A DNA stretch of 64,000 nucleotides from Candidatus Omnitrophota bacterium (GTDB lineage Bacteria; Omnitrophota; Gorgyraeia; Gygaellales; Profunditerraquicolaceae). Shown here piece after piece: positions 13,072 to 62,580 of the stretch. The position numbers and the translations under genes are program-made. The notes beneath the pieces were generated by a model. That model had not been told where the DNA came from. It was given only the letters and a program-made list of their open reading frames with translations, and did not search any database. The DNA lies in the NCBI GenBank assembly GCA_030693145.1, contig JAUYBI010000045.1, forward strand, positions 4,591 through 68,590. The letters are read 5' to 3'. Within the stretch, counting starts at the first letter, position 1, and every line of letters begins with the position of its first letter.

Positions 13072-13461
13072 TTACTTTAAAGCTTCCCTTGTTTCCAGAC
13101 TGATGATAATTATAGCAATCCAAAGGGTAATGCCAATAAAAAAACCAAATAAAATAAGCATGAAATAGAGGATAAAATATTTTGCATGTTTCTGATAGGC
13201 GAACTTTGTTACTTTTTTTAAAGCAATGATACATACTATCACGCTGAATATGCCCATTAAAGTCAAAATAATTGCTATCGTCTTACCAAAAGGTAGGCTC
13301 ATTAGCTCCATATTAGGGATACGATTAGGATAAAAAAAAGCCTGATAGATATTTGTACACGCCAGGAGTCCTAAAAGGGCCCAAAAGAATTTCCTTCTTT
13401 CCTTTATAATCTTAAGCTTATCATTTGCAGAAATCTCTCTAAATCTCTTTTTTTGCATCAT
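13072..13461 (-). CDS. Hypothetical small membrane protein (3 predicted TM helices)
   Basis: A 129-aa ORF in an AT-rich islet contains long hydrophobic segments and has no recognisable family. Confidence 0.35.
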   Translation of the reverse strand: MMQKKRFREISANDKLKIIKERRKFFWALLGLLACTNIYQAFFYPNRIPNMELMSLPFGKTIAIILTLMGIFSVIVCIIALKKVTKFAYQKHAKYFILYFMLILFGFFIGITLWIAIIIISLETREALK

Positions 13462-14420: not shown

Positions 14421-14828
14421 CTACACCCTGATTATCCCGCTTCCCCATTGATAAATCCTTGTCGTTACCTTGACCATTTCATCGGCATCGGCTTTATGCA
14501 CGCTGCGGCATTCATACTGAACGAGATTTTTACGGGCGATGACTTTACGTAACTGTCTGGATCTTTCCTGCGCGCCTTCAAGCGGCAAACTGGCCACCAG
14601 ATCGCAAACATCCAGATGATCCTGCGATACTGAACGAACACCTTTCTCGTAGACGCAAATCGCATCTGCCGATGAGATCGCGCACTGAACAGCCAATGTC
14701 GCTGCCGCATTCCAGTTTAACGCATTAAAAGCAGTTAACATCTGCTCGTAATTATCAGCTGCTTTTTTCAAATAATCCACTGCTACAGACCTCTCCTCCT
14801 GCCTGATTTTCATCTCGCGAGCAGCCAT
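14421..14828 (-). CDS. HEPN-like protein, the putative toxin partner of the upstream nucleotidyltransferase
   Basis: A 135-aa all-helical ORF lies 3 nt downstream of the MNT gene, in the typical MNT-HEPN order. The R-x4-6-H motif is not clearly intact (RKNLVQY). Confidence 0.4.
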   Translation of the reverse strand: MAAREMKIRQEERSVAVDYLKKAADNYEQMLTAFNALNWNAAATLAVQCAISSADAICVYEKGVRSVSQDHLDVCDLVASLPLEGAQERSRQLRKVIARKNLVQYECRSVHKADADEMVKVTTRIYQWGSGIIRV

Positions 14829-14830
14829 AT

Positions 14831-15460
14831 CTACACCTCTAAAGGTTCTTTACCATACAAGACAGAGTAAGATTTCATCAGTGTTGAAACCGGCGGCTTA
14901 TTCTTTTTAAGCCGCTTCTTAAATTCATCCGCTGACTTAATATAAGGATCAACTTGAACCCCGAAATATGCCTTGAATCGAGGGATTACTTCGAAGGAGA
15001 AGACATTCTCGACTGATCGAAGATCCGAAACGCGGGATACTACTACGGCGACATCAACATCACTTCCCTTTTTTGCTTTCTCGGTTTGCACGCTTCCATA
15101 AAGAATTAAAGACGCTATTTTCGCCTTAATCTTATTTTTCTTTAATTCATTTAAAAGAAAATCCCGGATCTCATTCTTAAAATTACTCTCAGCGGCAAAC
15201 ATGGGACGAATGATTTTTTGCACAATTCGATCCTCTTCATTCAAGGCATAAATATGTTGCTTGCCTATAATGTCTAATTTTAAGATGTTACGTTCATGTA
15301 GATTCTTTAATGAATCGTGCGTAGAAGGGGCGGAATAGCCCACAAGTTTGGCAATTTGGCGCCCTGTGGCTTTGAGTCCTCTGCGAGAAGCAAAAACTCG
15401 CAGAATGGCCAGTTTGGATGGGGAATCAACAATGTCTTCGACTTGGAATGTAGCAACCAT
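14831..15460 (-). CDS. Minimal nucleotidyltransferase (MNT) with an N-terminal winged-helix domain; putative antitoxin
   Basis: The NTase signature YGSVQTEKAKKGSDVDVAVVV (GS...DxD) follows an N-terminal HTH-like segment (SRRGLKATGRQIAKLVGYS). Confidence 0.6.
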   Translation of the reverse strand: MVATFQVEDIVDSPSKLAILRVFASRRGLKATGRQIAKLVGYSAPSTHDSLKNLHERNILKLDIIGKQHIYALNEEDRIVQKIIRPMFAAESNFKNEIRDFLLNELKKNKIKAKIASLILYGSVQTEKAKKGSDVDVAVVVSRVSDLRSVENVFSFEVIPRFKAYFGVQVDPYIKSADEFKKRLKKNKPPVSTLMKSYSVLYGKEPLEV

Positions 15461-18172: not shown

Positions 18173-21100
18173 TTATGCTTCCTCTTCCGCGATTACCGGA
18201 GCGACACAGGAAACCCGGTCTTTGTCCTGCAACTTAATTAAGCGTACACCCTGAGACGAGCGGCCGGTTTCACGGATATCTTTGATCGCGCAGCGTAAAA
18301 ATATTCCATTCTGGGTAATAACCATCAGCTCATCTTTATCATTTACGGTTTTTAGATTTACTGCCTGGCCGTTTTTATCGGTAACCTTAATATTGATTAC
18401 CCCTTTACCTCCGCGGCTGGTTAACCGGTATTCATCGATGGTCGTGCGTTTTGCAAAACCTAACTCCGTAACCGTCAAGATAGTTGAAGCCTTTTGCGGA
18501 ACCACCATATCAATAACTTCATCTTTTTTAGCCAAAGATATCGCGCGCACGCCACGGGCGCCTCTGCCCATTTCCCGCACTTTTTCTTCAGAGAATCTTA
18601 TGGCCTTGCCCTGTTTGGTCCCAATAAGTAATTCCTGTTTTCCATCAGTCATCTCTACGCCAATTAATGCATCATCCTTATCTAAAGTAATCCCGATAAT
18701 GCCGCCTTTACGCGGATTACCGTAGGCTTCAAGTTTAGTTTTTTTGATCTGGCCTAACTTAGTGACCATGACCAAATATTTATCCGCGGAAAATTCTTTT
18801 ACCGGAATAGTCGAACTCACCTTAGCTGACTGCTCCATCTGCACCAGATTAACAATAGCTTTGCCCTTAGATATGCGGCTGGCCTGAGGAATTTCATAAA
18901 CCTTTAACCAGTGCACCTGTCCTTTATCCGTAAAAATAAGCAGGTAATCTTTGGTTGAAGCAACAAAAAGATGCTCGCTAAAATCTTCTTCTTTTAATTC
19001 CGCCCCCATTGCCCCGGTTCCTCCGCGCTTTTGTTTACGATAAGAGCTTACCGGCAAACGCTTAATATAACCACCGTGGCTGATGGTAACCACCACATCC
19101 TCGTCGGCAATTAAATCTTCCACTTCCAGCTCTTCTGCCTCTCCCACAATATCTGTGCGGCGGGAATCCCCATATTTTTTCATTAACCCCTGTAGCTCTT
19201 CTTTAATAATTGTTTCAATCTTTTTAAGTGAGCCAAGAATTGCCCGGCATTCTTCAATTTTCTTTAAAAGTTCCGCATACTCGGCATCAAGTTTATCACG
19301 CTCAAGAGCGGTTAAACGCTGTAACTGCATTTCCAGGATCGCCTGAGATTGAATCTCAGAAAGCTCAAACTCCTTCATTAAATTTAGCTTGGCTGCTTCC
19401 ACGCTCTTGGAAGTCTTAATTACCTGAATAATCCGGTCAATAAATTTGAGCGCGATTTTTAAGCCTTCTAAAATATGCGCGCGCTTTAAAGCTTTATCTA
19501 ATTCAAACTGCATGCGCCTGCGGATAACTACCCGGCGATGTTCGATAAAACAGTCTAATACCTGACGTAAATTTAAAACTTTTGGCCGGTTATCCACCAA
19601 GGCCAGCATAATAATCCCAAAGGTATTTTCTAATTGCGTATGCTTAAAAAGCTGATTTAAAACAATCTGGGATTCAATGTCGCGCTTAAGCTCAACGACA
19701 ATGCGCATACCTTCTTTATCGGATTCATCGCGAATATCGGATATACCTTCGATTTTTTTATCATCCACTAAATTGGCAATGGCCTCAATCAGTCCGGACT
19801 TTTGAACCTGATAAGGAATCTCAGTAAAGATAATCAGATCTTTGCCGTTCTTCTGGTGCTCCACAGTTGCCCGGGAGCGCACCAGAAGCTTGCCTCTTCC
19901 GGTGGTATATGCATCTTTAATTCCACCCTTGCCGCAAATTAAACCACCGGTAGGAAAATCCGGCCCTTTAATATAACGCATCAAATCTTTAATTTCTGCT
20001 TCAGGATTATCGAGCAAATAAATGATTGCATCGCAGACTTCGCTTAAATTATGCGGCGGTATATTTGTAGCCATACCGACGGCAATACCGCTGGAACCAT
20101 TAACCAAAAGATTAGGCAGAGTCGCCGGTAAAAGCAGAGGTTCTTTTAAAGAAGAATCAAAGTTTGGCCCAAAATTAACTGTTTCCTTGTCAATATCACC
20201 CAACATCTCGTCGCTAACCGCGGCCAGACGGGCCTCGGTATTATGACTTATAAATCCATTGGATACAAATGAGTGGCATGGACTATCCACTTTGATTGAA
20301 TAGACTCTCTTCTTACCGGCATCTTCTATCGAAACAATTTTATCAAAGATATATTTATTTTTTATCAAACTCTCAAATAAACAAATATCGTTTTTATCAA
20401 GAACTCTTCTTAGCCTAGGCCAGTATTTTTCTATTTTTGGATACCTATCAATGTTGTGTTTTTTTAGCCATTCTATGTTCCCCCAATATTTTCTCATGCA
20501 CCGAATGCTTTTTTTACGAATATAGTCGGCGATGTAGGGAATAAAATCTGTCTTAGACATAACCCAATCAGTTTTATTGCGATTACAAATATCTATTAGC
20601 CTTTCACGACTTTTCTTGGTAGCGAAATTTATTTGATTTTTAAATAAATCGAGATTATTGCGGCCCCTAATAAACAACCTAAAATAGTTTTTTTGCTTAT
20701 GGAATCTATACGATGAATCAATGCCAAACATTAGCAAAAAAACTTGTAAACCTTGAATCAATTTTCCACTGGTGGATATCAAGCTAACATCGGGGTTTCT
20801 TTTGCCAACACAAATACTACCATCTCCCTCCGCATAACCTTTTATAAATGCGGCGACTGATTTTTTCGAAGAAGAAAAAATTATATCTGGAATGGTTTTA
20901 TCATAAGCTCGCAATTGACGTAACCCTAGATTTTTCAAAAAATCTATAACATGCCTTGAATGAATTTCTAAATAAGTGCACTTCTTTTTCCCATAACCCA
21001 ATGGTTTTCTTACAAATTCATGCAGCCTGCAATCGGGGAATGCTCGCTGGAAACACAATTTAAAATCCCGCAGAAACTCTTTATCCCCATTACAGAATCC

Positions 21101-21928
21101 AATCTGTTCTTTGCTTATAGAACCTTCTGCAATTAGCGCTCCCAAAATAAAAGCCAGATCTGTATTCATAGCGCGAGGGAATTTATGATCCTGCCTTCTA
21201 TTTCGAAGTTCTGGATAAAATTTCTTTAATAAAGGTTCTCTTGAAGGGAATAACGAACCGCTTCTGCTGACTACGACAAAATCGCCATTTTCTATATTAT
21301 TTAATAGTTTCCAAACTAATTTTGGCTTTGTTCCATTACGTTGCCACGTTAAAATAGGATGATTCATGCTCCCGCATAAGTTAAAACCTCTAAAAGTAGT
21401 AATTTTTTTAGTTAAATGCTCTCCGGAATCAAACCATTTTGAAACATGATTTATCTTATTATTTAATGAAAGTACTCGAAAACCTGTTTTGGAATGACGA
21501 GACAGCTCGTCTATTCTTTGTAGCCCTTTATCTGTAACAATCAGAGTATCTCCGGTGACGCAATATCTCATCGCGGCAGCTGCATCCCCGTCGACCGATC
21601 CAAAATTTCCTTGGCCATCAACCAGCGGATAGCGCAAAGAAAAATCCTGCGCCATTCTTACCAGAGTGTCATAAATAGCAACATCGCCGTGCGGATGATA
21701 TTTGCCCATCGTTTCCCCGACGATGCGGGCGCATTTTTTATAGGGCTTGGAATGTTCCAGATTAAGTTCCCGCATGGCGTAAAGAATCCTCCGGTGCACG
21801 GGCTTTAAGCCATCGCGCACATCGGGCAGGGCGCGGCCAACAATTACGCTCATGGCATAATTTAGGTAGGAGTCCTTAACTTCATCCTCAATGTAAACCT
21901 GAATTATTTTTTCGTTGCGCGTGTACAT
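18173..21928 (-). CDS. gyrA: DNA gyrase subunit A with an in-frame intein
   Basis: The 1251-aa ORF has GyrA sequence (AAAAMRY...) through residue 122. It is then interrupted at the active-site Tyr by a 441-aa insert that begins CVTGDTLIV and ends FISHN, followed by [12 protein letters not shown]... The flanking halves sum to a normal GyrA of about 810 aa. Confidence 0.9.
20240..21562 (-). mobile_element. GyrA intein with a LAGLIDADG homing-endonuclease domain
   Basis: Splicing blocks are present: an N-terminal Cys (CVTGDTLIV), block B (NHPILT), and the C-terminal HN followed by a Thr +1 residue. Two LAGLIDADG-type motifs are present ([14 protein letters not shown] and [14 protein letters not shown]). 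The insert is AT-rich relative to the extein. Confidence 0.85.
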
Positions 21929-21930
21929 GA

Positions 21931-24411
<2,481 letters not shown>

Positions 24412-24472: not shown

Positions 24473-24760
24473 TCATGAAACTTCTCCGATACGGAAATTG
24501 ATATTTTTTAATTCCGGATTGTCTTTTTTTAGCTCCTTAAGCAGCTCTTCTTTTTTTAAACTTAAAATATATAACCAAGCCGAGGAATCCACACTTAAAC
24601 CCAGAATCCCCTTGCTGAAATATTTAACTCTTATATGCCCCAACTCCTTATTTGTCAAGGCTTTTTTTAACCACTGTTGGGGGCCGGCATCTTGAAGAAC
24701 GGTTTTTTTAGCGCCCAACTGACGCATCACTTCATCTAGTGTGTTTTTTAAAAGTTCCAT
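24473..24760 (-). CDS. DUF721-family protein associated with dnaN/recF
   Basis: A 95-aa ORF lies directly downstream of dnaN, with the typical DUF721 size and position. Confidence 0.5.
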   Translation of the reverse strand: MELLKNTLDEVMRQLGAKKTVLQDAGPQQWLKKALTNKELGHIRVKYFSKGILGLSVDSSAWLYILSLKKEELLKELKKDNPELKNINFRIGEVS

Positions 24761-24764
24761 GCTC

Positions 24765-25856
24765 TTAATTAAGGCGCATCGGTAAAACTATGTAGACATA
24801 ACCGCTAATACGGATAACCCCGGGTTTCTCTCCATCAGTCAACTCTAAATTAATTGTTTCTTCATTCAGGTTTTTTAAAATATCCATTAAATAAACAGGG
24901 TTAAAACCCACCACCAATTCTCTGCCTTGGTATTCTACCGCTAATTCTTCATGGAACTCCCCCACATCCGGCGTAGATTTAGAAATTACTAATTTATTCT
25001 TAAAAACTTCCAGTTTAACCGCCTGGTAATCCGGCGTAGCCAGGAGCGCTGCTCTTTTGACCGCTAATAATAACTGACTACGCACTATCTTCACTTTATT
25101 TTCTGAAGGCGCGGGGACAACTTGTTTATAATCCGGAAACTCTCCTTCAATTAAACGCGAAACAATTCCCACGTTACCCAGATCAAAAAGCGCCTGATTA
25201 CTACTCACCACCAACGATAACTCCCCCTCATCTTTAAGATTACGATTTAATTCTTGAATTGTTTTAAGCGGCACAATCATGCTCACATCTACATCTGATT
25301 CTAGGGTTAATTTCCTCTCCGCCATGGCCAGTCTTTTACCATCAGTAGATACTAAAGTTAACAGGTTTTTATTAATTTTAAAAAGGATGCCGTTTAAAAC
25401 ATAGCGTGTTTCATCCAAAGATACCGCAAAAGCAGTTAAAGATAACAATTGTTTTAAAACCCCTTGTTCGATCTTAATCGCTTTTTTATCTACAAACTCG
25501 GGTAATTTAGGAAACTCTTCTTTCATTAACCCCATAATTTTAAATTGGCACATATCTGAATCAATGGTTACCTGGTTATTTTTCCTGGTAGTAATACTAA
25601 TAACCTCTAAAGGAAATTCTTTAATAATGTCACTAAATCTTTTGGCGGGAAGAGTAATGGCGCCCGTTTCTTGAATATCCACAGGAATTACACAAGTTAT
25701 CCCAATATCTAAATCTGTAGCTGTTAACTTTAAAGTATTTGTTTGAGCTTCAATTAAGATATTAGAAAGAATAGGTAAGGCGGATTTTGTAGTAATAACA
25801 TTTTGTACGGTTTGAATGGCGCTAATTAAATTAACTTTTTCTGCTTTAAACTTCAT
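24765..25856 (-). CDS. dnaN: DNA polymerase III beta sliding clamp
   Basis: The 363-aa three-domain clamp begins MKFKAEKVNLISAIQTVQNV... Confidence 0.92.
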   Translation of the reverse strand: MKFKAEKVNLISAIQTVQNVITTKSALPILSNILIEAQTNTLKLTATDLDIGITCVIPVDIQETGAITLPAKRFSDIIKEFPLEVISITTRKNNQVTIDSDMCQFKIMGLMKEEFPKLPEFVDKKAIKIEQGVLKQLLSLTAFAVSLDETRYVLNGILFKINKNLLTLVSTDGKRLAMAERKLTLESDVDVSMIVPLKTIQELNRNLKDEGELSLVVSSNQALFDLGNVGIVSRLIEGEFPDYKQVVPAPSENKVKIVRSQLLLAVKRAALLATPDYQAVKLEVFKNKLVISKSTPDVGEFHEELAVEYQGRELVVGFNPVYLMDILKNLNEETINLELTDGEKPGVIRISGYVYIVLPMRLN

Positions 25857-26042: not shown

Positions 26043-27380
26043 TCATTGTTTAATAACTTTAATAACTTTTTCCACCCGTTCTTTTAATTCCGGATTATTA
26101 CAGATACTTTCTTTGATTTTTTTATAAGAGTGTAAAACTGTAGTATGGTCTTTACCGTTAAAAAGTTCCCCGATTTCAGGCAATGATAATTCTGTTAATT
26201 CCCTGCTTAAATACATGGCGATTTGTCGCGGGAACACCACTTGTTTATTGCGCCGTTTCGTTTTTAGATCTTGCAAGGAAATTCCAAACTCTTCCACTAC
26301 GCAACGCTGAATAAAATCTACAGTGATTAGTTTAGTCGGTTCCTTAACCAGGTCTTTTAGTACTTCTTTAGTAAGTTGTAGCGTAACTGGAGACTCTTCT
26401 AATAATGAATAGGCAATCGTTCGGATTAATGCTCCTTCTAATTCGCGGATATTCGTTTTAATTAATTGCGCAATAAAAAAAATTACTTCATCAGGAACAT
26501 TAACCGGTTCGCGCTCAATTTTTTTCTTGAGAATGGCCACCCGGGTTTCTAAATCCGGAGGTTGAATGTCCGTGGCTAATCCCCAACCAAACCGCGAAAC
26601 CAATCTCTCTTGTAAATTAGTAATTTCTTTAGGCGGCCGGTCTGAAGAAAATACAATCTGTTTATGAGCGTCATACAAGGTGTTAAAAGTGTGGAAAAAT
26701 TCTTCCTGGGTGGATTCTTTACCGGCGATAAAATGGATATCATCAATGACTAAAACATCAAGATTGCGGTATTTTTGGCGGAAAGCTGAAGTGGATCGAT
26801 GCACGATAGCATCAATCAGTTCGTTAGTAAATTTCTCGCTGGAAACATAACATATTTTTACTCCCGGGGAGGAGAAGTTTTTAATTTGGTGACAAATAGC
26901 CTGGATAAGATGAGTTTTACCTAAGCCCACCCCACCGTAAATAAATAGGGGGTTATATGTTTTGGCCGGGGCATTCGCTACTGCCAGTGAATAAGCATGA
27001 GCATGACGGTTTGCTCCGCCTACCACAAAGTTTTCAAATGTATAACGCGAGTTCAGGTTAATAAAACCCGCTCCGGGTAAACTCTTGATACTGGCTTCAG
27101 GTGGAGTATTGAGGATAGCGGGATTTCCCGGAGTACTGCTGACAACCAATTTTACCAATAAATTATCCAAACCCTTTAGCCTTAAGGTTTCCTGGATAAT
27201 TCCCAGGTAGTGTTTTTCAACCCAGTCTTTAAAAAATTGATCCGGCGCCTCCAGGTCTATACTTTGGCCATCTTGACTAGAGAACTTAAGCGGTAATATC
27301 CAGGTAGCGTAGCTAGTTTCTCCCAGTTTCATCTTTAAATCCATTAGCGCTGCTTCCCAGTTTTTGGTTAACTCCAGCAT
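26043..27380 (-). CDS. dnaA: Chromosomal replication initiator protein DnaA
   Basis: The protein has an AAA+ Walker A motif (GGVGLGKTHL) and a C-terminal DnaA-box-binding domain. The start is taken at the ATG at 27380, which is preceded by GGGAG. The track's TTG at 27392 is an alternative. Confidence 0.92.
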   Translation of the reverse strand: MLELTKNWEAALMDLKMKLGETSYATWILPLKFSSQDGQSIDLEAPDQFFKDWVEKHYLGIIQETLRLKGLDNLLVKLVVSSTPGNPAILNTPPEASIKSLPGAGFINLNSRYTFENFVVGGANRHAHAYSLAVANAPAKTYNPLFIYGGVGLGKTHLIQAICHQIKNFSSPGVKICYVSSEKFTNELIDAIVHRSTSAFRQKYRNLDVLVIDDIHFIAGKESTQEEFFHTFNTLYDAHKQIVFSSDRPPKEITNLQERLVSRFGWGLATDIQPPDLETRVAILKKKIEREPVNVPDEVIFFIAQLIKTNIRELEGALIRTIAYSLLEESPVTLQLTKEVLKDLVKEPTKLITVDFIQRCVVEEFGISLQDLKTKRRNKQVVFPRQIAMYLSRELTELSLPEIGELFNGKDHTTVLHSYKKIKESICNNPELKERVEKVIKVIKQ

Positions 27381-27392
27381 TTTTACTCCCAA

Positions 27393-27958
27393 AATTAAAT
27401 AATCAATCCCCCAAAAGCCCCTTTATCTCGATGGAGTTTATCCTATGAGCAGCATATAAATAGACAAAACTGAGCCGGGGATATACCGTGAATCACAGGA
27501 TTAACAGTTTATGCACAGCTTGTATAAATCTGTGGATAAAGCTCTGAACATGATTTCCCCAAAAACAAATATTATAACCAAGGCCAAAACCTTACCAACC
27601 TTGTTAGTTACGTGCCTATAGAATATCATAAGCTATCTACCGGGGCAAGTAAAAAAGATGAACGTTAGTTATTATGCAATAATATTCACAGGCCAACCCG
27701 GTTAGAAACAATTAAACCAAAGCAGTATAGCACAGTTTCTAATGGGGTCAATAAAAAACTTGACCACCATATAAATGTGTGTTACAATTCACAAAATCAA
27801 TCCTCTGACTTTGCTCAGGATTGCTACACCAGCGGCGCCTTTTGTGGGCACCGCCGGATGTATCAAGAAAATCATCTTCATAAACTGTAGTTGATTTTCG
27901 CTTTCTCCTGGCTTGCTTTCGTAGAAAAACCTCAGGGGCAAAAAAGGGAGATCTGGAA
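27393..27958. other. Candidate oriC between dnaA and rpmH: an AT-rich region carrying DnaA boxes
   Basis: A perfect DnaA box TGTGGATAA lies at 27531-27539. Near-consensus boxes are TTATGCACA (27509-27517), TTATCCTAT (27439-27447) and ATATTCACA (27682-27690). An AT-rich stretch spans 27560-27580. Confidence 0.55.
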
Positions 27959-28096
27959 ATGAAAAAAAATTTAAAGACGCCATCAAATATTGTGGGTAAG
28001 AGGCGCCACGGATTCCGCAGTAAAATGGCTACTAAGTCCGGGCGCAAACTTCTGGCGCGTCGACGGTTGAAGGGTAGAAAAAAGCTTTGCGTTTGA
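27959..28096 (+). CDS. rpmH: 50S ribosomal protein L34
   Basis: The 45-aa product [45 protein letters not shown] falls below the size cutoff of the supplied ORF track. Confidence 0.9.
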
Positions 28097-28311
28097 CCCC
28101 GGTAAACTTAGCGTTTAAACTGATCGCGGCATATCAGAAATATTTAAGTCCGAGTATTGCGGCAGGTTGCCGTTTCGAACCGGGATGTTCTGAATATACA
28201 AAACAAGCAATTTTTAAATACGGATTAATTAAAGGAGTATTTAAGGGGCTAATTAGAATATTACAGTGTCACCCGTTTTCTGGTAAGTCCGGTTATGACC
28301 CCTTAGTATAA
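28087..28311 (+). CDS. yidD: Membrane protein insertion efficiency factor YidD
   Basis: The 74-aa protein has the conserved YQKYLSP...[10 protein letters not shown] motif. It starts with TTG and overlaps the rpmH 3' end. Confidence 0.85.
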
Positions 28312-28316
28312 AATCC

Positions 28317-45240: not shown

Positions 45241-45461
45241 GATTGATTCCGTTATAAATATGTGCTATACTTTTTTTGGAATCAAAGAGCTCTTTAAAGA
45301 TATCCCTGCGGTGCGCGTTGGAAATTTGATAATTGTTGAACCAACACCATATTCACGGGAGCCCCATTATTCTTTAGGCACTTGTGCCCAAAGATAGGGC
45401 ACCCATCTGAAACCAAATCGGTTCAGACTATCAGTCCAACGGCACTCTTGCGGGGATTTTT

Positions 45462-61295: not shown

Positions 61296-62580
61296 GGTTA
61301 GATTTGCACCGAGTCCCACGGGAAATTTGCATATTGGCGGAGGACGTACTGCGTTGTTTAATTGGCTTTTTTCTCAGTCGCAACAAGGCAAGTTCATCTT
61401 AAGGATTGAAGACACGGACAGGGAACGCTCTAAGCAAGAATTCGTCGATGAAATACTCTTGAGCCTTAAGTGGTTGGGTTTTAATTGGGATGAGCTCTAT
61501 TATCAGAGTGAGCGTTTTGGCCGTTATCAACTGCACGCGGATAAATTACTTAAAGCCGGTTTAGCTTATATTGAAAGATCTGAAGGTGGTAAAGAAGCGA
61601 TAATTTATAAGGTTCCCCAGCAAAAGATCCTGGTCAAGGATTTAATCCGCGGACAGATCGAATTTGATTCCTCCTTGATTAAAGATCAGGTTTTAATTAA
61701 ATCCGACGGAACTCCTACCTATAATTTTGCCTGCGTGGTGGATGATGCTGAGATGAATATTACGCATATTATTCGCGGAGATGACCATATCTCTAACACG
61801 CCAAAGCAAGTTCTGCTCTATGAAGCCTTAAAGTTTGAGTTGCCGAAATTTGCGCACCTTCCTTTGATTATGGGGGTGGATGGGGGTAGGCTTTCCAAGA
61901 GGACAGGCGCAACGGCGATTAGTGATTATCGTAAAATGGGATATCTGCCCGAGGCGCTGCTAAATTATCTGTTACTGCTTAGTTGGGCTCCGGGTGAAAA
62001 TCGTGAGCTGGTGAACATCCAAGAGGCAATAAAATTATTTGATATAAAAAACGTGAATAAAACTTCCGCTACCTTTGATTTAAAGAAATTGGATTGGATA
62101 AATAACCAGTATCTTAAAGGTGCTGATCCGGAAAAGCTGGCCGATGAACTTATCCCGCTGCTTGAGGCAAAGAATTATATTCATAAGGATAGCTTTGATC
62201 GCGGGTATCTGTTAGTTTTAATAAAATTATTTCAAGCCAGGCTGCCCCGGCTTAATGATTTTGTAGAATGGGCGGATTTTTTCTTTCTGGATGAACCGGT
62301 AATCGAGCCGGCGGCGAAAGAAAAATATTTAACCGGCGATTTATCCCGGGAATTTAGCCTGTTTGCTCAAAGATTGGATAAGCTGGCCAGTTTTGAGATT
62401 ATTAATATTGAAGACAGCTTTCGGCAGTTAGTGGCAGAGCTGGGTATTGAGGCCAAAAAATTAATTCATCCTATACGCGTTGCTCTTACCGGTAAGACTA
62501 TCGGTCCGGGATTATTTGAGGTAATTTATTACCTGGGAAAAGAGCGCAGCCGCAGGAGGTTATTAAAGTGGGTAAAATAA
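61288..62580 (+). CDS. gltX: Glutamate--tRNA ligase (short form)
   Basis: The class I HIGH motif is represented by RFAPSPTGNLHIGG, and KLSKR is present. Confidence 0.9.
   Translation: MVRVRFAPSPTGNLHIGGGRTALFNWLFSQSQQGKFILRIEDTDRERSKQEFVDEILLSLKWLGFNWDELYYQSERFGRYQLHADKLLKAGLAYIERSEGGKEAIIYKVPQQKILVKDLIRGQIEFDSSLIKDQVLIKSDGTPTYNFACVVDDAEMNITHIIRGDDHISNTPKQVLLYEALKFELPKFAHLPLIMGVDGGRLSKRTGATAISDYRKMGYLPEALLNYLLLLSWAPGENRELVNIQEAIKLFDIKNVNKTSATFDLKKLDWINNQYLKGADPEKLADELIPLLEAKNYIHKDSFDRGYLLVLIKLFQARLPRLNDFVEWADFFFLDEPVIEPAAKEKYLTGDLSREFSLFAQRLDKLASFEIINIEDSFRQLVAELGIEAKKLIHPIRVALTGKTIGPGLFEVIYYLGKERSRRRLLKWVK

Follow-up and report, generated by a model that had tools for sequence, protein, structure and literature searches.

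The DNA analysed here (the window) is a 64,000-nucleotide (nt) stretch of a contig from a Candidatus Omnitrophota bacterium, and its gyrA gene is interrupted in frame by an insert of 441 amino acids (aa). We consider, with a probability of about 0.8, that this insert is a class-1 intein of full length that belongs to the GyrA Tyr122/Thr123 allele group (here and below, a slash between residues marks a junction), with a HINT domain split by a LAGLIDADG endonuclease, and that it has been spread by homing. The element is a textbook intein, a known kind of selfish element. Its host protein, site and chemistry are known, and its phylum is different.

The insert in GyrA and the intein-free alleles

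The gyrA precursor open reading frame (ORF), comprising N-extein, intein and C-extein, is at 18173–21928 on the minus strand, as are all parts of it described below, and encodes 1251 aa. It matched DNA_topoisoIV (538.8 bits) and six DNA_gyraseA_C repeats in Pfam, and the gyrA equivalogs NF004043 and TIGR01063 in NCBIfam, each in two pieces and above the cut-offs. The N-extein, GyrA residues 1–122 (21563–21928), ends with Tyr122 (codon 21563–21565). The intein, residues 123–563, occupies 20240–21562 (1323 nt) and extends from Cys1 (codon 21560–21562) to Asn441 (codon 20240–20242). The C-extein (18173–20239, 688 aa and the stop codon) begins with the +1 nucleophile Thr (codon 20237–20239). The two junctions read Tyr122/CVTGDTLIV and NGFISHN/TEARLAAV, and the coordinates, lengths and junctions given in the first-pass annotation were exact when compared with the ORF translation.

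When the insert was removed from the translated ORF, the exteins joined to an 810-aa GyrA. Residues 7–220 of the spliced N-terminus match residues 7–220 of E. coli GyrA (3nuh) in register and without a gap. Thus, the residue preceding the intein corresponds to E. coli Tyr122, which we take to be the catalytic tyrosine, in agreement with the earlier placing of the insertion right after the active-site Tyr.

The N-terminal splicing (HINT) region, intein residues 1–105 (21248–21562), contains block A Cys1 and block B, which reads S65-M-N-H68 (His68 codon 21359–21361), with NHPILT at residues 67–72. Residues 106–393 (20384–21247) form the LAGLIDADG homing-endonuclease domain and a trailing helical region, and LAGLIDADG_3 of Pfam matched there in two stretches. 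The first LAGLIDADG motif is at residues 136–147 (21122–21157), with LGALIAEG at 140–147 and Glu146 as the putative catalytic residue; a PDB sequence search aligned it to LGYLIADG of the 7qsu intein. The second is at residues 236–248 (20819–20857), with KGYAEGDG at 241–248 and Asp247 as the putative catalytic residue. The C-terminal splicing region, residues 394–441 (20240–20383), contains block F (VDSPCHSF, 425–432) and block G (NGFISHN, 435–441). All of the features from which an intein had been proposed, namely the Cys start, NHPILT, two LAGLIDADG-type motifs and FISHN followed by Thr, were located in the translation.

Profile and structure searches agreed on a LAGLIDADG-bearing intein. In Pfam, the insert matched LAGLIDADG_3 at 71 bits (cut-off 22.5) and Intein_splicing at 45.6 bits (cut-off 35.8), and the isolated intein scored 25.4 against TIGR01445 (cut-off 24.5). 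The top PDB sequence match of the insert was the Mycobacterium xenopi (Mxe) GyrA intein 1am2 (phmmer, E = 9e-19), in two blocks that flank the endonuclease: intein residues 28–102 align with Mxe residues 36–110, and residues 394–441 with 152–199. Residues 109–306 matched homing-endonuclease (HE)-associated V-ATPase inteins including 7qsu (4e-13). The NCBIfam model NF038098, 'intein-containing DNA gyrase subunit A', aligned to the protein from end to end, with the insert at profile positions 117–537. This alignment and the Mxe match support the earlier proposal that the insertion point is the one used by mycobacterial GyrA inteins. The whole protein scored 1205 bits against NF038098 and did not reach the curated cut-off of 1850 bits, and therefore this GyrA falls outside that narrowly defined mycobacterial subfamily, with an architecture that is alike.

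An AlphaFold2 model of the intein, built on a 22-sequence alignment, had a predicted local distance difference test score (pLDDT) of 89.4 and a predicted template-modelling score (pTM) of 0.91. In the model, a beta-rich N-terminal part extends to residue 98, an alpha/beta core spans 134–328, helices span 344–402 and C-terminal strands span 405–440. The elements that DSSP assigned to the endonuclease core (134–328) are alpha-beta-beta-alpha-beta-beta-alpha, i.e. the pseudo-dimeric LAGLIDADG fold. When the model was searched against the PDB with Foldseek, the best match was the TliVMA intein (E = 8e-24, template-modelling (TM) score 0.70), followed by PI-PfuI, PI-PkoII, PhoVMA and PI-SceI. The Mxe GyrA intein 1am2 matched with a TM score of 0.78 normalised by the target, while I-DmoI and I-Tsp061I matched the endonuclease core (TM score about 0.7, also normalised by the target).

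To examine residue conservation, 23 same-site inteins with ...[MQ]RY/C...HN/TE... junctions were extracted from protein hits and loci and aligned. Cys1, His68, Glu146, Asp247, His430, His440 and Asn441 were unchanged in all 23, and all 23 are followed by Thr at +1. The splice-junction residues on which the first-pass annotation depended are thus present and invariant in this alignment. Judged by sequence, the residue set is complete for what would be canonical class-1 splicing and for a putative two-metal LAGLIDADG active site.

Intein-free alleles, for which a check of relatives had been suggested, were found when the spliced 810-aa extein sequence was used as the query in an orthologue search. 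The closest orthologue, P0034, is intein-free, has 810 aa and is 97% identical to the query in a gap-free alignment, as expected if the exteins join as proposed. An intein is absent from 113 of the 120 orthologues that ranked best (86–97% identity; where named, mostly Omnitrophota). Gene order at the P0034 locus (L008), dnaN-dciA-gyrB-gyrA-glmS, is that of the window. Its gyrA and the spliced window gyrA are 2433 nt each and align codon for codon with 85.0% nt identity; 297 codons differ synonymously and 30 non-synonymously. The empty site of L008 reads ...GCCATGCGTTAT/ACCGAGGCTCGC..., also written ...GACGCCGCAGCGGCCATGCGTTAT/ACCGAGGCTCGCCTGGCCGCA....

The insert might be something other than an intein, either a GyrA domain specific to the lineage or an artefact of assembly or annotation, but we give this practically no probability. 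With an intein-free orthologue 97% identical to the spliced protein, a GyrA domain common to the whole lineage is ruled out. Against both readings stand the intein-free 810-aa orthologues, the presence of every splice-junction residue, the confidently predicted HINT and LAGLIDADG folds, and the same in-frame arrangement in NCBI, JGI and ENA assemblies that are independent of one another; together they refute them.

Proposed splicing and dependence of the host

Translation would yield a precursor of 1251 aa. There the intein would part the catalytic Tyr122 from the remainder of the DNA-cleavage core, and so the precursor should be inactive. Splicing would start with an N-S acyl shift at Cys1, helped by block B His68. 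The +1 Thr would then attack the thioester (trans-esterification), and cyclisation of Asn441, helped by His440, would release the intein. A final O-N shift would give the mature 810-aa GyrA. The freed intein may in turn cleave an intein-free gyrA at the ...ATGMGNTAT/ACCGAGGC... junction, and repair from an intein-bearing copy would then insert the element there (homing).

Given no second gyrA beyond the 64-kb window, gyrase function presumably depends on splicing. Gyrase is essential and the precursor would be unable to cleave DNA before the intein leaves, and thus splicing is presumably obligatory. It has to be asked whether the host has turned this dependence to use, with the intein co-opted as a post-translational switch (for example one that is redox- or metal-sensitive via Cys1 and further conserved cysteines, Cys429 of block F for instance) that gates active gyrase. 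The insertion at the catalytic tyrosine, which makes the precursor necessarily inactive, would suit such a switch. A cysteine just before block F His430, like Cys429 here, is present in the majority of the aligned family members. There is also precedent among inteins of other replication proteins, as passages of PMC6195587 and PMC7360933 document conditional splicing for mycobacterial DnaB inteins. On the other side, the distribution of the element is sporadic, with 113 of the 120 close relatives intein-free, and this speaks against a need of the host for it. We therefore regard a regulatory role as quite unlikely.

Probable homing and its alternatives

In a genome scan with one genome per GTDB species, the same intein was present in metagenome-assembled genomes (MAGs) of Candidatus Omnitrophota, with 94% (L001), 71% (L002) and about 61–63% (L003) identity to the window intein. 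Three MAGs labelled Clostridia (L004–L006) carry it with 59–61% identity, and a Hydrogenothermaceae MAG (L007) with 42%. When the intein was used as a protein query, more copies within GyrA turned up under the labels Omnitrophota, Woesebacteria, Acidobacteriota and Nanoarchaeota, and distant ones (28–29% identity) in two proteins that lack a GyrA domain (P0032 and P0033). Viral relatives are 24–30% identical and have the same HINT and LAGLIDADG layout; they are in terminase genes (H1 and H12) and helicase genes (H2–H8). Their sequences suggest that the phage terminase and helicase inteins, P0032 and P0033 belong to the family of the window intein as distant members whose hosts are mobile elements.

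The first-pass annotation had left open whether the element arrived by homing or was an ancient acquisition. Synonymous divergence (dS, Nei-Gojobori) favours the former, namely recent horizontal homing between lineages. The intein DNA of the window and that of L001 agree at 94.5% of positions and at 89.8% of third codon positions; nt identity is 84.4% in the N-extein and 82.8% in the C-extein, with only 57–58% at third positions (Fisher p = 9e-35 for the intein-extein contrast). The corresponding dS is 0.18 for the intein, 1.58 for the N-extein and 1.36 for the C-extein. A second pair, L064 (JGI) and L001, has a dS of 0.004 in the intein and of 0.28 and 0.20 in the exteins. Because dS of the intein is far below that of the exteins, the common ancestor of the intein copies is much younger than that of their host genes.

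The other part of the earlier proposal, an ancient acquisition, did not hold up as well. It would be a single event in the ancestor of the clade or earlier, followed by vertical descent and by loss in most descendants, with the endonuclease irrelevant. Occupation of the same site in several phyla could be read in this way, and so could the roughly parallel identities of intein and extein in L001–L003 (94/93, 71/85 and 63/66%). However, in two independent pairs the dS of the flanking exteins is 7 to 50 times as high as that of the intein. The window exteins are closest to those of the intein-free L008 (85.0% nt identity, compared with about 83% to L001). P0056 (locus L009) has exteins 92% identical to those of the window, yet its same-site intein is only 47% identical. 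In the Clostridia MAGs, the intein is 60–61% identical to that of the window while the C-extein is only 55–57% identical. Purifying selection on the endonuclease domain also argues against an irrelevant endonuclease. Vertical descent of an ancient intein is thus very unlikely.

The strength of this selection, as the ratio of non-synonymous to synonymous divergence (dN/dS), is 0.155 for the whole intein. It is 0.10 in residues 106–385 (the endonuclease); the splicing parts have 0.29 (N-terminal) and 0.21 (C-terminal). The minimum in the endonuclease is the pattern expected under selection for endonuclease function.

The base composition of the insert was also compared with that of its surroundings. 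The intein has a GC content of 0.342 and a third-position GC content (GC3) of 0.295; these values are 0.495 and 0.541 in the N-extein and 0.433 and 0.431 in the C-extein, so the earlier description of the insert as more AT-rich than the gyrA flanks was right. Across the 46 ORFs of the window, no coding stretch has a lower GC content than the intein (z = -3.2 for GC and -2.8 for GC3), and none of 246 in-frame 1323-nt segments from other ORFs was as low in GC. Among all 1323-nt stretches of the window, comparable AT-richness was found in a few others, near 25200 (dnaN), near 13100 and near 62550. Since there are other stretches that are similarly AT-rich, composition alone is not diagnostic of a foreign origin and is supportive only. 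Across the hosts L001–L007, GC of the intein stays at about 0.35–0.37, while that of their C-exteins spans 0.375–0.52; the intein lineage holds its own composition whatever the host.

Several points weigh against an intein that splices and is spread by its endonuclease. We infer splicing and DNA cleavage by the intein from conserved residues and evolutionary signatures. Two residues of the splicing blocks are not constant: at the block B Thr position (residue 65), 17 of the 23 same-site inteins have Ser, as does the window intein, and six have Thr, while block F Asp426, an Asp in the window intein, is variable across the family. No close phage-borne copy was found by tblastn of 50,697 phage records or by a pattern scan of IMG/VR. 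Comparison of the extein flanks with L001 and L008 gave no convincing co-conversion tract beyond a few tens of nt. In addition, general homologous recombination at the locus, without any action of the endonuclease, could in principle give a low intein dS.

Recombination of this kind is part of a reading in which the endonuclease is inactive. The splicing intein would then be kept only because its precise loss is difficult, and the low dS would come from ordinary recombination or gene conversion among co-occurring strains. Apart from the flanks without an evident co-conversion tract, this is favoured by general knowledge of the homing cycle, as decayed endonucleases are common among full-length inteins. 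It is opposed by both LAGLIDADG acidic residues, which are unchanged in 23 of 23 inteins, and by dN/dS, which is lower in the endonuclease than in the splicing regions (0.10 compared with 0.21–0.29). Moreover, the sharply higher identity between the window and L001 is limited to the intein, and the flanks fall to 80–87% identity within about 100 nt, as homing with short conversion tracts would give. We consider an inactive endonuclease unlikely and prefer homing.

A broader reading is that GyrA of this Omnitrophota clade is a live arena of intein traffic. Inteins are present at three sites in hosts with 86–97% identical exteins, and the MRY site is used by two unrelated intein lineages. The window element may belong to an active homing population that also crosses phyla (to the candidate phyla radiation (CPR), Acidobacteriota, 'Clostridia' MAGs and Aquificota). 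We hold this to be possible, at slightly less than even odds.

Other inteins were observed in gyrases of the same group. Four Omnitrophota GyrA proteins (P0048, P0124, P0035 and P0039), whose exteins are 86–94% identical to those of the window, have inteins at two other sites. At RIVGE/C...SHN/ (equivalent to about residues 72/73 in the window, about 21711) there is a LAGLIDADG intein of about 460 aa. The intein at GQGNFG/C...VHN/SVDGD (about residues 110/111, about 21597) has 391 aa, with an Intein_splicing match and no LAGLIDADG match; an HNH-like HH..N..H string is visible in it by eye. With MRY/C, these make three intein sites (RIVGE/C, GQGNFG/C and MRY/C) within about 50 codons of GyrA in one clade. 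A metagenomic GyrA fragment (P0023) has two inteins, a mini-intein at GQGNFG/C...VHN/SIDGD and a LAGLIDADG intein at MRY/C. In L009, gyrB (positions 1–1499, at least 1036 aa), which is upstream of the gyrA encoding P0056, also has an Intein_splicing domain, and both gyrase subunits are thus interrupted there.

Neighbouring genes, known inteins and significance

In the window, gyrB (21931–24372, minus strand, 813 aa) is intein-free and is directly upstream of gyrA. The gyrB-gyrA operon is downstream of dnaA-dnaN, and dciA-like (24473–24760), dnaN (24765–25856) and dnaA (26043–27392) are all on the minus strand. No intein domains were found in the ten other largest ORFs of the window, including gyrB. 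Gene orientation switches at the intergenic region 27393–28316, and yidC, from 28317 onwards, is a plus-strand gene. DnaA-box matches are at 27509, 27531 (perfect) and 27991, and this region is probably the chromosomal origin. A 6S/SsrS RNA is at 45300–45460 on the plus strand (64.3 bits, gathering score 46.4). The segment 12611–15460 (minus strand) contains small ORFs and is low in GC (about 0.34 near 13100). By eye, the ORF pair 14421–14828 and 14831–15460 (minus strand) looks like a HEPN/nucleotidyltransferase toxin-antitoxin-like module.

The closest known systems are the mycobacterial GyrA inteins (Mxe 1am2 and 4oz6, and that of M. leprae). They are in the same host protein, inserted after the catalytic Tyr and before Thr-Glu-Ala, and have the same Cys1...His-Asn/Thr chemistry as the window intein. 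Their native junction is presumably MRY/C...HN/TEA (the gyrA-a site). The host of the window intein is in a different phylum, Omnitrophota. The splicing domain of the Mxe GyrA intein is homologous to that of the window intein, with about 33% identity over 190 aligned positions (an approximate value). The Mxe intein has 198 aa, no endonuclease and a Thr in block B, whereas the window intein retains a complete LAGLIDADG domain and has a Ser in block B. The VMA, PI-PfuI, PI-PkoII and yeast PI-SceI inteins (7qss, 1dq3, 2cw7 and 1vde) have the same architecture of HINT and two-motif LAGLIDADG domains, but they are in other host genes and sites, with only 9–21% identity in structural alignments.

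Inteins in mycobacterial GyrA have been described since the 1990s; passages of PMC8861304 give 420 aa with an endonuclease for M. leprae and 198 aa without one for M. xenopi, and cite Fsihi et al. 1996 as the source on the M. leprae GyrA intein. In a 2016 survey (Novikova et al., PMC4760082), inteins of GyrA numbered 50, from Actinobacteria, Aquificae, Chloroflexi and Proteobacteria. These inteins are in the same host protein, and the sporadic spread over many phyla fits the bias towards replisome proteins and topoisomerases described in that survey, whose list is without Omnitrophota and CPR lineages. In the literature searched, we found no paper that links inteins with GyrA of Omnitrophota (Omnitrophica).

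General knowledge of inteins is unchanged by this element, which is a well-documented example with no new mechanism. It extends the host range of the classical GyrA intein allele to Omnitrophota and, through homologous inteins, to CPR and further uncultured phyla. The dS contrast (0.18 compared with about 1.5, and 0.004 compared with about 0.25) is a clean signature, read from sequence only, of ongoing homing in uncultured bacteria. The apparently intact endonuclease and the known empty site of L008 are an enzyme-target pair that can be tested directly. If GyrA of this clade does sustain live intein traffic, it would be a natural bacterial system for the homing cycle and for interference between neighbouring inteins, and it might be a source of new LAGLIDADG specificities against the codons of the gyrase active site.

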